Position numbers: made by a program. A stretch of DNA of 64,000 bases, from the NCBI RefSeq assembly GCF_057098645.1, contig NZ_CM169472.1; one strand, given 5' to 3'. This document shows positions 17,601-23,600 of the stretch, piece after piece. The stretch's first letter is position 1. Each line of letters starts with the position of its first letter.

Positions 17601-20600
17601 CGCCGTTTACGCTCAGGCCCAGCGTTGTATTTTGCGGATCGCCGGTGAATTCCGCCGCGGGAATAAACCCGGAAAGCGGACAAGAGTTATCAAACGCTTT
17701 AGCCTTTTCCCACGGCTGCCCGGCTTTCTTCATTTTTCCCTGAACATCACGCAACGTCAGATCGAGCGCCACGCCGTAACCGGCAATGGCTTTGCGGACA
17801 TGCTCTTCCGTAGCCTGACGCAGCGTCGCGCCAATCAACACCGCCAGTTCGACTTCATGATGAACTGAACCGAAATCGGATGGGATCGCCAATGGCTGCC
17901 GCAGATCGCACAGTGCCGTTTCTGGTTTAATAAACAGCACTGGCTCTTCGGGCACTGCGCTGCCCATCTCTTTAATATGTTTGGCATAGTTACTGCCAAC
18001 ACAGACTACTTTACTCACCGGATAATCCAGCAGCGCACCTTGCCAGTTGTGATGTTGATACATAACGTTCCCCTCACCTTATCGTGGATATGAAAACCCG
18101 CGCCGACAAAGATAATGCCACCGCCGGATATCGGTTATTTGTTAGTGTCGTCTGTTTTCTGCCCCATGACGGAAAGATGTTGCTTCAGCAAATCTTCGGG
18201 TGGTGGCGGTAACTGCAAATAGTAACCTTGCTCGGTTAATGCCTGTTTAACCTTTTCAATATCGGCATTGACCAGTTTCTTCCGCCCATCCAGCGGCAGA
18301 ATCATCGCTAACTGAGGCTGACCAAAACCTTTCATCAGTTCCTCAGGAACACGCGAAAAATCGTCTTTTTTTTCGACATATAAATAGGTCTGGTCACGCT
18401 TGCTGCTTCGATAAATCACACAAAACATACTTTTACTCTTTAAGATGCCAGGTTTTGGCATAAGCTAACATCAATGAAACCCGCGCCACAAGCCAGCCAG
18501 CTGTAGATTTCTACGTTTTGAACCGCCCCGGGAATCCTGGAGACTAAACTTCCTGAGAAAGAGGTAAACAGGATGACTAAAAATACTCGTTTTTCCCCTG
18601 AAGTCCGTCAACGGGCAGTCCGTATGGTTCTGGAAAGTCAGGGCGAATATGACTCACAATGGGCGACAATTTGTTCCATTGCTCCAAAGATTGGCTGTAC
18701 GCCGGAGACTCTGCGTGTCTGGGTTCGCCAGCATGAGCGGGATACCGGGGGCGGTGATGGAGGGCTCACCACCGCTGAACGTCAGCGTCTGAAAGAGCTG
18801 GAGCGTGAAAATCGTGAACTGCGCCGCAGTAACGATATCCTTCGCCAGGCTTCCGCTTATTTTGCGAAGGCGGAGTTCGACCGCCTCTGGAAAAAATGAT
18901 GCCACTGCTGGATAAGCTGCGTGAGCAGTACGGGGTCGGACCGCTATGCAGCGAACTGCATATTGCCCCGTCAACGTATTACCACTGTCAGCAACAGCGA
19001 CATCATCCGGATAAACGCAGTGCCCGTGCGCAGCGCGATGACTGGCTGAAGAAAGAGATACAGCGCGTATACGATGAAAATCACAAGGTATACGGTGTGC
19101 GTAAAGTCTGGCGTCAGTTGTTACGGGAAGGTATCAGAGTGGCCAGATGCACTGTGGCACGTCTCATGGCGGTTATGGGACTTGCCGGTGTTCTCCGGGG
19201 TAAAAAGGTCCGTACGACCATCAGCCGGAAAGCCGTTGCCGCAGGCGACCGCGTAAACCGTCAGTTCGTGGCAGAACGACCTGACCAGCTGTGGGTGGCT
19301 GATTTTACTTACGTCAGCACATGGCAGGGCTTCGTCTATGTGGCGTTCATCATTGATGTGTTTGCCGGATACATTGTGGGGTGGCGGGTCTCATCGTCCA
19401 TGGAGACGACATTCGTGCTGGATGCACTGGAGCAGGCGTTATGGGCCCGTCGACCGTCCGGCACGGTCCATCACAGTGATAAAGGTTCTCAGTATGTATC
19501 GCTGGCCTACACACAGCGGCTTAAGGAAGCCGGATTACTGGCATCAACAGGAAGTACAGGCGACTCGTATGACAACGCGATGGCGGAGAGCATCAATGGT
19601 CTTTACAAAGCGGAGGTAATACACCGTAAGAGCTGGAAAAACCGTGCAGAAGTGGAACTGGCCACACTCACGTGGGTGGACTGGTATAACAATCGACGAT
19701 TGCTGGAAAGGCTGGGCCATACTCCTCCGGCAGAAGCAGAAAAAGCTTATTATGCTTCCATCGGAAACGATGATCTGGCAGCCTGAGTTCACAGATAAAA
19801 CACTCTCCAGGAAATCCGGGGCGGTTCATTTTGTTGAGTCCATGCCCCCTTTATAAGTAATCCCCCCGGCAAAAATGCCGCGACGGGATTTTACCGAACG
19901 CAGGAAAGCCACTGGAATTCTCCCGTAAGGGATTGTTATATTATAACAGTTCATCGTACTCATTCTGAACAGGAGACTACCAATGAAAATCAAGAGCATC
20001 AGTAAGGCTGTATTGCTGCTTGCACTGCTAACCTCCACGAGCTTTGCTGCGGGTAAGAATGTCAATGTTGAGTTCAGAAAAGGCCATAGCAGCGCTCAGT
20101 ACTCCGGCGAAATAAAGGGATACGATTACGATACATATACCTTCTATGCCAAAAAAGGTCAGAAAGTGCATGTGAGTATCTCTAATGAAGGCGCTGATAC
20201 TTACCTCTTCGGGCCAGGAATCGATGATTCTGTTGATTTATCCAGATATTCCCCTGAACTCGATAGTCACGGACAATACTCACTCCCTGCTTCTGGCAAA
20301 TATGAGCTGCGAGTGCTGCAAACCCGAAACGACGCCCGTAAAAACAAAACTAAAAAATATAACGTCGATATTCAAATTAAGTAAATGTCAACCGACGGGG
20401 AGTCTCCCCGTCATAAACGTTGACGCCCCACTCCTCTCTGTCGCTCAAGAGGTTAATGACGAATAGAACATAATGTAAACAAGACATCACTCACGACACA
20501 TAAATAACATCTTTGTGGTGGTTTGATTGATTTTTCCACTCCGCTTACCATCTACACCAAAATAACGATCATCACGGCATAATTTTTCTTTAACATCGCA

Positions 20601-23600
20601 AAATACACCGTTAGCGAATGTAAATTCGCTGGGATCGTAGCCTTGTAATGATTGTAAGTTTTCAGCGGCTTTTTCGCCGAGATATTTCCTTGTTAACTCT
20701 GGGGAAATGCCATCTGAGTTCACACAAATATACGGGTCGCAAACAACGCCGCACGCCGGAGATTGAAGTCCGCCAGCGTCATGTCCAGACGCCATTGATG
20801 AGAACATCATTAGACTGGCCCCCTGAATCTCCAGACAACCAGTATCACTTAAATAAGTGATAGTCTTAATACTAGTTTTTAGACTAGTCATTGGAGAACA
20901 GATGATTGATGTCTTAGGGCCGGAGAAACGCAGACGGCGTACCACACAGGAAAAGATCGCAATTGTTCAGCAGAGCTTTGAACCGGGGATGACGGTCTCC
21001 CTCGTTGCCCGGCAACATGGTGTAGCAGCCAGCCAGTTATTTCTCTGGCGTAAGCAATACCAGGAAGGAAGTCTTACTGCTGTGGCCGCCGGAGAACAGG
21101 TTGTTCCTGCCTCTGAACTTGCTGCCGCCATGAAGCAGATTAAAGAACTCCAGCGCCTGCTCGGCAAGAAAACGATGGAAAATGAACTCCTCAAAGAAGC
21201 CGTTGAATATGGACGGGCAAAAAAGTGGATAGCGCACGCGCCCTTATTGCCCGGGGATGGGGAGTAAGCTTAGTCAGCCGTTGTCTCCGGGTGTCGCGTG
21301 CGCAGTTGCACGTCATTCTCAGACGAACCGATGACTGGATGGATGGCCGCCGCAGTCGTCACACTGATGATACGGATGTGCTTCTCCGTATACACCATGT
21401 TATCGGAGAGCTGCCCACGTATGGTTATCGTCGGGTATGGGCGCTGCTTCGCAGACAGGCAGAACTTGATGGTATGCCTGCGATCAATGCCAAACGTGTT
21501 TACCGGATCATGCGCCAGAATGCGCTGTTGCTTGAGCGAAAACCTGCTGTACCGCCATCGAAACGGGCACATACAGGCAGAGTGGCCGTGAAAGAAAGCA
21601 ATCAGCGATGGTGCTCTGACGGGTTCGAGTTCTGCTGTGATAACGGAGAGAGACTGCGTGTCACGTTCGCGCTGGACTGCTGTGATCGTGAGGCACTGCA
21701 CTGGGCGGTGACTACCGGCGGCTTCAACAGTGAAACAGTACAGGACGTCATGCTGGGAGCGGTGGAACGCCGCTTCGGCAACGATCTTCCGTCGTCTCCA
21801 GTGGAGTGGCTGACGGATAATGGTTCATGCTACCGGGCTAATGAAACACGCCAGTTCGCCCGGATGTTGGGACTTGAACCGAAGAACACGGCGGTGCGGA
21901 GTCCGGAGAGTAACGGAATAGCAGAGAGCTTCGTGAAAACGATAAAGCGTGACTACATCAGTATCATGCCCAAACCAGACGGGTTAACGGCAGCAAAGAA
22001 CCTTGCAGAGGCGTTCGAGCATTATAACGAATGGCATCCGCATAGTGCGCTGGGTTATCGCTCGCCACGGGAATATCTGCGGCAGCGGGCTTGTAATGGG
22101 TTAAGTGATAACAGATGTCTGGAAATATAGGGGCAAATCCAATCATCCCCACACCTGACAATCCGATATAAAAAATACGCATCATATTCATAGCACATCC
22201 TGATAATCCAACCGTACAACACTTATGCTCATTTCATCATCAATCCGTAATCAAAACCGCTGACCTGGACGAGTTACGATGACCTGACAGAAGTATCAGA
22301 CGTCTTCTGCGGTTTCTATGATAGAGCAATTCTGTGGCGGATATTAAGATAACGGGTATCTGTTCTTTAATGATGCTGCAAAAAATGGAAAGTTAAGAAA
22401 GCCTGGCGTGGTGAAAAAATACACTTGCCTCAATACTGGATATTTAAACAGGTCTGAAGATGCTGTCACGATTAGGGTGCGGAAAAAGGAAGCGTAAATA
22501 AGAACAATCAAAAGTACGACGGCAATGGGTTGATTGACAAGGGTATTTTTTAAGCTATGAATCAGCGCCATTTATCACAGAATAGACTTTTACTCTGAAT
22601 AAATGGGAGGGTGACTTGCCTCAATATAATCCAGACTATAACATGCCTTATAGTCTTCGGAACATCATCGCGCGCTGGCGATGATTAATAGCTAATTGAG
22701 TAAGGCCAGGATGTCAAACACGCCAATCGAGCTTAAAGGCAGTAGCTTCACTTTATCTGTGGTTCATCTGCATGAGGCAGAACCTAAGGTTATCCATCAG
22801 GCGCTGGAAGACAAAATCGCTCAGGCCCCCGCATTTTTAAAACATGCCCCCGTTGTACTCAACGTCAGTGCACTGGAAGACCCGGTAAACTGGTCAGCGA
22901 TGCATAAGGCGGTTTCGGCAACCGGTTTGCGGGTTATTGGCGTAAGTGGCTGCAAAGATGCGCAACTTAAAGCCGAAATTGAAAAGATGGGGCTGCCTAT
23001 CCTGACGGAAGGAAAGGAAAAAGCGCCGCGTCCAGCTCCCGCACCGCAGGCTCCAGCGCAAAATACAACGCCGGTCACAAAAACGCGTTTAATAGATACC
23101 CCGGTGCGTTCCGGTCAGCGTATTTATGCTCCACAATGTGATCTGATTGTTACAAGCCACGTTAGCGCTGGGGCCGAATTGATTGCCGATGGTAACATTC
23201 ATGTCTATGGCATGATGCGCGGTCGTGCGCTGGCAGGGGCAAGTGGTGACCGGGAAACGCAAATATTTTGTACGAACCTGATGGCGGAACTGGTGTCCAT
23301 CGCAGGTGAATACTGGCTGAGTGATCAAATCCCAGCAGAATTTTATGGCAAAGCGGCGCGACTGCAGTTAGTCGAAAACGCTTTGACCGTTCAACCGTTA
23401 AATTGATCCCTTTTTAACAAGGAATTTCTATGGCACGCATTATTGTTGTTACTTCGGGCAAAGGGGGGGTTGGTAAGACAACCTCCAGCGCGGCCATCGC
23501 CACTGGTTTGGCCCAGAAGGGAAAGAAAACTGTCGTGATAGATTTTGATATCGGCCTGCGTAATCTCGACCTGATTATGGGTTGCGAACGCCGGGTCGTT

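Follow-up and report, generated by a model that had tools for sequence, protein, structure and literature searches.

An IS2 insertion splits the 5′ end of ycgJ next to an intact minCDE operon in an Escherichia coli genome

The window analyzed here, a stretch of 64,000 nucleotides of contig NZ_CM169472.1, carries the gene order pliG-ycgJ-minC, with ycgJ divergent from minC, as encountered in annotated RefSeq genomes. On the plus strand, pliG (19983-20384, 133 aa) is intact and convergent with ycgJ, and minC (22711-23406, 231 aa), intact as well and identified from the RefSeq annotation of homologous loci, is followed by minD and minE. Between these genes, ycgJ is divided into two minus-strand fragments by a complete IS2 element (IS3 family) of 1331 bp (20811-22141, plus strand), which is the only IS2 copy within the whole window and whose transposase is oriented toward minC. 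The 3′ part of ycgJ (20487-20810) extends from Met16 to the stop (107 codons plus stop codon) and includes the whole PF05666 domain; the 5′ stub (22142-22191) comprises the start codon, codons 1-16 and two nucleotides of codon 17, and keeps the native promoter side and the ribosome-binding site. The 519-bp ycgJ-minC intergenic region (22192-22710), inside which the native divergent promoters lie, is uninterrupted, and a promoter scan returned a promoter-like site upstream of ycgJ at 22347-22318 on the minus strand.

The element runs from 20811 (TAGACTGGCC...) to 22141 (...GGGGCAAATCCA) on the plus strand and, over all 1331 bp, shares 99.7-99.85% DNA identity with the RefSeq-annotated IS2 copies of SHP24, K-12 MC1000 and LD27-1. 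Gapped alignment of the left end with the reverse complement of the right end delineated a 42-bp left terminal inverted repeat (IRL, 20811-20852) and a 41-bp right one (IRR, 22101-22141), with 31 matches and one 1-nt gap, the lengths being those reported for IS2 (PMC3299598). Also on the plus strand, orfA (20902-21267) encodes a helix-turn-helix protein of 121 aa (Pfam PF01527 HTH_Tnp_1, E=1.8e-19) and orfB (21225-22130) a protein of 301 aa with a DDE/integrase core (Pfam rve PF00665, E=1.1e-18; rve_3, E=1.8e-18), and the slippery site A AAA AAG (A6G) of the programmed -1 frameshift lies at 21219-21225. The resulting 409-aa OrfAB translation matches at 100% identity the CDS that RefSeq annotates with a ‘programmed frameshift’ in SHP24 and MC1000 (WP_088895425.1, ‘IS3-like element IS2 family transposase’); the element is thus the IS2 known from K-12 and many other E. 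coli. Length and identity, terminal repeats, the frameshifted ORF pair and the 5-bp target duplication described below all assign the element to IS2. No structural difference from known IS2 was observed, the window copy being distinguished by its insertion site and by 2-4 silent or non-coding substitutions. IS2 transposes through a copy-out/paste-in minicircle pathway, and a 5-bp target duplication is the defining mark of its integration. Judging from its frames, A6G site and terminal repeats, all of which are intact, the window copy looks active.

Identical ATCAT pentamers abut the left (20806-20810) and the right (22142-22146) end of the element, for which the odds of a chance match at both exact ends are approximately 1 in 1000, and 5-bp duplications were also present at all 17 other IS2 insertions that we mapped. 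Read on the minus strand, the duplicated ATGAT corresponds to ycgJ codon 16 plus two nucleotides of codon 17; the physical insertion point lies after nt 50 of ycgJ, within codon 17, and Met16 is present in both fragments. The first-pass annotation had described an IS2 insertion after codon 15: the element, its boundaries and the ATCAT duplication were exact, whereas ‘after codon 15’ (codons 1-15, MNMMRIFYIGLSGVG, 22191-22147, minus strand) is a convention for an insertion that really falls inside codon 17. Its reconstruction of a 122-aa YcgJ was borne out in full, as excision of 20811-22146 (IS2 and one ATCAT copy) restores a minus-strand ORF of this length (MNMMRIFYIGLSGVGMMFSSMASG...MCRE), and the exact protein is a database entry (‘YcgJ family protein’) with exact public matches on >1000 contigs. 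The restored protein scores 98.5 bits against Pfam PF05666 (cutoff 25; E=3.3e-28) over profile positions 1-87 of 87, the domain spanning residues 30-118. By its sequence features (R5, a hydrophobic run at 6-18 and ASG before HDAGG), the segment formed by residues 1-24 resembles a Sec signal peptide, and six cysteines follow it. The gene actually carried by the window is, however, not an intact, expressible full-length member of this family, since its coding sequence is split after nt 50.

Comparison with other strain assemblies, which had been suggested as a check, yielded both the empty and the occupied site. In the nearest complete genomes, belonging to E. coli O145:H28, the site is uninterrupted and the two flanks abut without gap, at 99.6-99.97% identity on both sides; the right flank (22142-32225) aligns as a single block with 99.97% identity, 3 mismatches and no gaps, and this block takes in the entire ycgJ-minC spacer. 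Junctions identical to those of the window were found in at least seven draft assemblies (GCA_900479285.1, GCA_958319985.1, GCA_900195455.1, SRR30480458, GCA_036952245.1, GCA_024357405.1 and GCA_032290865.1), on contigs 99.7-100% identical to the window, and a 1249-bp contig reported for at least four samples is 100% identical to 19688-20936. Among complete RefSeq E. coli genomes, the exact junctions with canonical IS2 are absent, all matches coming from drafts, and so is the junction between IS629 and pliG. Assemblies are notoriously prone to error at IS elements, and this absence might be taken to indicate an IS2 copy misplaced during repeat resolution. Such an artefact is, however, difficult to reconcile with a perfect 5-bp duplication, with the exact restoration of the gene, and with the independent occurrence of both junctions in seven short-read assemblies whose contigs cross from unique DNA into IS2. 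Because the same junctions recur in at least seven draft assemblies, we reject misassembly, which we hold to be extremely improbable. Metagenome contigs starting exactly at the truncated ycgJ (L010-L012, L014-L016 and L018) were set aside as evidence for the insertion, as they contain no IS2 sequence; two of them (L010 and L011) in addition carry bases of the intact gene at their start.

Our main reading, which we consider very probable, is that of an IS2 insertion through which the function of ycgJ was lost while minCDE and pliG are expressed normally. According to this model, a functional-looking IS2 copy moved into the start of ycgJ by transposition and generated the 5-bp duplication. The insertion cuts the predicted signal peptide in two, and 1.3 kb of antisense IS2 now separate the coding body from the ycgJ promoter and ribosome-binding site. 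The native promoter would be left to express only a junk chimera of 75 aa, in which the ycgJ stub reads on into antisense IS2 (21964-22191, minus strand), and a product begun at Met16 or Met17 would have lost the charged n-region along with the greater part of the hydrophobic core required for export. The expected outcome would be that YcgJ, a small, non-essential and presumably periplasmic protein with six cysteines, is no longer exported. With the signal peptide split and the gene body 1.3 kb away from its promoter, the window allele is thus most likely null as far as its sequence indicates, in line with the initial proposal of an inactive ycgJ or, at most, a product shortened at its N terminus. 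The gene itself is dispensable, as an E. coli ycgJ single-gene mutant was grown beside BW25113 controls (PMC12005443).

Transcription running out of IS2 could nevertheless give rise to a truncated YcgJ, and we weighed whether a functional 107-aa protein started at Met16 might be produced from transcripts leaving the element via IRL. The wholly retained PF05666 domain, an SD-like AGGGGG that lies within IRL and precedes the internal ATG by 8 nt, and a 152-aa ORF that starts at a GTG in IS2 and crosses IRL into ycgJ are all compatible with this scenario, and annotation pipelines (RefSeq) treat the remnant of 106/107 aa like any other ‘YcgJ family protein’. However, the promoter scan gave no minus-strand hit within IS2, and the 152-aa ORF is called in no public assembly. 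The remnant begins with MMFSSMASG, without a basic n-region and without most of the hydrophobic core, and a six-cysteine domain kept in the cytoplasm would be unlikely to fold as it does in the periplasm. Residual YcgJ function therefore seems very unlikely to us, and loss of ycgJ function, including non-export of any truncated product, is what we infer, together with the lack of an effect on min.

The insertion leaves the structure of minCDE, and likewise that of pliG, unchanged, and their expression is most likely normal. The first-pass annotation had located the insertion about 500 bp upstream of minC, a figure that fits the distance between the ycgJ and minC start codons (519 bp) but not that between the right end of IS2 and the minC ATG at 22711, which is 569 bp. 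It had also raised the possibility that IS2 affects expression of the min operon, and such an effect could be envisaged through read-through from the transposase promoter or through a promoter at IRR, either directed outward or of hybrid origin: the transposase and minC share one strand, with no terminator-like site predicted between them, the -35 half of the minicircle junction promoter resides in IRR (PMC3299598), and hybrid promoters arising from IS elements are well documented (PMC12095673, introduction). Against this stand the 569-bp distance and the fully intact native intergenic region, as well as a reporter study in which no promoter activity was detected for a 150-bp IS2 right end, the assay registering promoters only within 150 bp of the reporter (PMC12095673). 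At the junction of IRR and flank, the top -35/-10 combination reached 7/12 and the promoter scan was empty, and a hybrid promoter at IRR was accordingly rejected. Moreover, IS2 copies in the same orientation lie still closer to minC in other E. coli, both natural and laboratory strains, at 260 bp in K-12 MC1000 and at 399 bp in SHP24, PSS-15 and FDN-24. The suggestion of a min effect is hence unsupported, and we regard regulation of minCDE by this IS2 as highly unlikely. Coordinates of the native minC promoter were not found in the literature searched.

Loss of ycgJ function with normal minCDE and pliG expression, our favored reading, can be compared with the classical effects of IS2, namely polarity in the gal operon and the creation of hybrid promoters. 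Disruption of a reading frame is common to both situations; unlike the classical cases, the ycgJ insertion forms no hybrid promoter and, as ycgJ is a monocistronic gene that converges on pliG, no downstream operon is exposed to polarity.

Independent IS2 insertions in the ycgM-pliG-ycgJ-minC neighborhood were detected in approximately 26 of 5,426 complete E. coli genomes, some of them 2-45 bp from that of the window; this count spans the ∼4.5 kb joinable by BLAST queries, and the genomes are not independent of one another. The closest parallel is E. coli a7 (NZ_CP122496.1), in which an IS2 variant lies in ycgJ with the same orientation and consequence as in the window, leaving a RefSeq remnant of 106 aa. 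Its element is only 95.5% identical to that of the window, its insertion point is 2 bp off and its duplication reads ACATC instead of ATCAT, so it represents an independent event. Further copies are located at the ycgJ ATG (FAHZZU6014), ∼120 bp upstream of ycgJ (SHP24, PSS-15, FDN-24, ETEC6, YJ6 and C21) and between pliG and ycgJ (ER1821R). These insertions share the element family and the 5-bp duplications with the window but differ in position, occur in both orientations and mostly leave ycgJ intact. An apparent orientation bias, the first search having returned only same-orientation copies, was an artefact of the same-strand joining of BLAST pieces; an inverted-IS2 query added 10 genomes, giving 16 versus 10 and no clear bias.

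From ∼19,000 chromosomal IS2 places over ∼5 Mb, roughly 17 genomes would be expected, and the ∼26 observed are not a convincing enrichment, leading us to reject a regional IS2 hot spot. At finer scale, the window lineage, a7 and FAHZZU6014 each carry an independent insertion of the IS2 family no more than 50 bp from the ycgJ start, and a 9-bp site 120 bp upstream of ycgJ is occupied in at least seven genomes, in both orientations, by copies 95.7-99.85% identical to that of the window. Only the base-level coincidences, those at the GTTTC/TGCGG site and among these three insertions close to the ycgJ start, look non-random. IS2 target choice is known to be non-random, and the nearby independent insertions fit this behavior. 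That the ycgJ 5′ end and the ycgJ-minC spacer form a recurrent target at which selection favors disruption, instead of being indifferent to it, is, in our estimation, very unlikely; if true, selection might act via loss of exported YcgJ, via relief from convergent transcription or from 3′-UTR overlap with pliG, or via subtle retuning of min expression.

Overall, the insertion is an ordinary event of an already catalogued kind, and its biological weight is small: a well-known mobile element has very probably knocked out a non-essential gene in one strain or lineage. Together with neighboring IS629-like and IS5 insertions, its junctions mark a close relative of O145:H28 with an IS-active genome, and both exact junctions can be used as a lineage marker. 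For annotation, the locus is best marked as an IS2-disrupted ycgJ pseudogene. In public records, the 107-aa remnant is called ‘YcgJ family protein’, and the exact 75-aa chimera, which is called in four contigs, every one of them ending inside IS2, is wrongly named ‘putative prophage side tail fiber protein’.

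On the minus strand of the window, an ATG at 22191 opens MNMMRIFYIGLSGVG (22191-22147), which is followed by the duplicated ATGAT and then runs into a 1331-bp element. As delimited by reading of the region and subsequent script slicing, this element extends from window position 20811 (TAGACTGGCCCCCTGAATCTCC...) to 22141 (...ATATAGGGGCAAATCCA) and is directly flanked by ATCAT on the left (20806-20810) and on the right (22142-22146). Beyond the element, ATGATGTTCTCATCAATGGCG... reads on as MMFSSMASG... to a stop codon at 20487-20489, and excising 20811-22146 by script restores a 122-aa ORF, identical to the one reconstructed in the first-pass annotation. 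The IS2 insertion and the span of 20487-22191 claimed there likewise hold, since this span corresponds exactly to the split ycgJ plus the element, with ATCAT on both sides. The restored protein matches Pfam PF05666 (YcgJ) with 98.5 bits (cutoff of 25; domain at residues 30-118), and an identical protein is recorded in the database as 'YcgJ family protein', on at least 1000 contigs. Moreover, annotated E. coli genomes have the same gene order, with pliG, ycgJ (opposite strand) and minC-minD-minE.

The element aligns gap-free over its full 1331 bp, at 99.70-99.85% identity, with the IS2 copies of SHP24, K-12 MC1000 and LD27-1, all three annotated in RefSeq as 'IS3-like element IS2 family transposase'. 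Its termini are imperfect inverted repeats (31 matches, one 1-nt gap), in keeping with the 42-bp IRL and 41-bp IRR described for IS2 (PMC3299598). It carries orfA (20902-21267, 121 aa, Pfam HTH_Tnp_1 match), orfB (21225-22130, 301 aa, Pfam rve and rve_3 matches) and, at 21219, the slippery site A AAA AAG present in IS2; the -1 frameshift yields an OrfAB of 409 aa that does not differ from the SHP24 and MC1000 transposase in RefSeq. Identity, terminal repeats, both ORFs, slippery site and OrfAB match all point to a canonical IS2, the only copy found by script slicing of the whole window, which by its sequence looks transposition-competent.

We compared this locus with other assemblies. In the closest complete genomes, those of E. 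coli O145:H28 strains and of strain C325 (both flanks 99.6-99.97% identical), the two flanks abut exactly with one ATCAT, thus representing the empty site. The exact junction with canonical IS2 is absent from the complete RefSeq E. coli genomes; among public contigs, however, four have a called 75-aa chimeric ORF across the right junction and at least three others contain the left one. A misassembly of the IS2 site is very unlikely, as these contigs, 99.7-100% identical to the window, each pass from unique DNA into IS2; one of 1249 bp, reported for at least four samples, is 100% identical to window 19688-20936. The same ycgJ::IS2 allele is hence already contained in public assemblies and is known in kind and in instance. 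GCA_036952245.1 carries the same IS2 junction without the neighbouring IS629-like element. If this is read literally, IS2 may have been the first of the two to insert in this lineage; alternatively, this draft assembly could have skipped a repeat. The first-pass interpretation of the locus as an IS2 disruption of ycgJ is right.

YcgJ residues 1-24 are laid out like a Sec signal peptide (basic residue 5, hydrophobic stretch at ~6-18, ASG before HDAGG), and the insertion point falls in the middle of the putative hydrophobic core. The rest of the protein carries six cysteines, as would be expected of an exported, disulfide-bonded protein. A promoter scan placed a promoter-like site on the native ycgJ promoter side (minus strand, 22347-22318) and predicted none on the ycgJ strand within IS2. 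The coding body is parted from promoter side and ribosome-binding site by 1.3 kb of antisense-read IS2, and we infer that these now drive only the 75-aa chimera ending inside IS2. Trace translation of a 107-aa product is conceivable, since the internal ATG is preceded, at a distance of 8 nt, by an SD-like AGGGGG; such a putative product would have no n-region and little of the h-region and should stay cytoplasmic. E. coli ycgJ single-gene mutants are viable and have been cultured beside BW25113 controls (PMC12005443), and ycgJ loss is therefore tolerated. The pair of ycgJ and pliG appears in a list of tail-to-tail genes with overlapping UTRs that can co-purify (PMC7154689), and the insertion might conceivably also affect pliG mRNA secondarily. 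In public annotation, the 107-aa remnant (20487-20810; 106 aa in strain a7) is called 'YcgJ family protein' and not a pseudogene, and the chimera (21964-22191) 'putative prophage side tail fiber protein' (SQN22302.1), its IS2-antisense ORF cluster mates having equally unrelated names.

The first-pass annotation had also raised a possible effect of IS2 on min-operon expression, which is unsupported, though conceivable. The minC ATG (22711) lies 569 bp from the IS2 right end, and the 519-bp ycgJ-minC intergenic region is wholly intact, window 22142-32225 aligning with O145:H28 as one gap-free block (99.97%, 3 mismatches). The -35 element that IS2 gives to its minicircle junction promoter resides in IRR (PMC3299598); from our own geometry we identify it as TGGAAA, located 17-22 nt inward of the tip, and the adjacent flank holds no -10 partner (best cross-junction combination 7/12), nor did the promoter scan report a promoter at the IRR-flank junction. 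A published reporter study, which could register promoters no more than 150 bp away from its reporter, detected no promoter activity for the 150-bp right end of IS2 (PMC12095673). Identically oriented IS2 copies lie even closer to minC in other strains (260 bp in K-12 MC1000; 399 bp in SHP24, PSS-15 and FDN-24). A mapped minC transcription start was not found in the literature searched. The spacer further contains a 13-nt direct repeat, ACTTGCCTCAATA, at 22423-22435 and 22614-22626 (191 bp apart), the second copy being followed by a TATAAT-like sequence ~90 bp upstream of minC; a role as promoter or regulator sites is possible. The IS2 copies of K-12 MC1000 and APEC O78 lie upstream of the second repeat, either at the first one or a little downstream of it.

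A survey of 5,426 complete E. coli genomes gave 15 with a same-orientation IS2 or a ~95.5%-identical variant in the pliG-ycgJ-minC neighbourhood (query coverage of at least 80%); FAHZZU6014 (78% coverage) brings the total to 16, and an inverted-IS query added 10 genomes. All 17 insertions mapped have 5-bp duplications and occupy many distinct sites, located in ycgM, ycgL, pliG (three sites), the pliG-ycgJ spacer (two sites), ycgJ and the ycgJ-minC spacer (three places). Within ycgJ, both in window orientation, FAHZZU6014 is hit at the ATG (L028, 2505-3835; TTCAT) and a7 at codon 16 (L003, 3510-4840; ACATC), two further independent IS2-family insertions less than 50 bp from the ycgJ start. That of a7 is clearly independent, given its different duplication, its offset of 2 bp from the window's site and its only 95.5%-identical variant. 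Elsewhere, a spacer site matching window 22308-22316 (TGCGGTTTC), ~120 bp upstream of the ycgJ ATG and empty in the window, is an IS2 micro hot spot. It is occupied in direct orientation with a GTTTC duplication in SHP24, PSS-15 and FDN-24 (mapped) and FDN-9 (junction search), by elements 99.85%, 99.2% and 95.7% identical to the window IS2, the last being the FDN variant, and in inverted orientation with TGCGG in ETEC6, YJ6 and C21. A regional enrichment is not clear, as the total count is near a rough random expectation of ~17 (~19,000 chromosomal IS2 places x 4.5 kb / 5 Mb). IS2 target choice is non-random and associated with curvature (PMC3299598), with which the base-level site coincidences agree.

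The IS629-like element (IS3 family; 1310 bp, 18519-19828) lies between ycgL and pliG, with a 296-aa OrfB (Pfam rve and HTH_21), ends TGAACCGCCCC...GGGGCGGTTCA and an apparent 3-bp TTT duplication. Its junction at this site occurs in no complete RefSeq E. coli genome and is shared by two draft contigs (L013 and L017). An IS5 copy at 32226-33421 (326-aa DDE_Tnp_1 transposase, minus strand; ends GGAAGGTGCGAA; CTAA duplication) appears, by O145:H28 coordinates, to lie inside ariR (ymgB), a biofilm/acid-resistance regulator gene. Past phoQ, collinearity with O145:H28 ends (46772-64000), and the only patches matching its P4-like integrative element are 53922-56515 (99.5%), 59155-59902 (91%) and 62119-64000 (95%), which suggests a different or mosaic satellite/integrative element at this site. 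Finally, IS content differs both ways between these close relatives; in O145:H28 RM12581, dadX has on its downstream side an IS3-family element of 1310 bp (record 1510103-1511412) that is absent at window ~5872.
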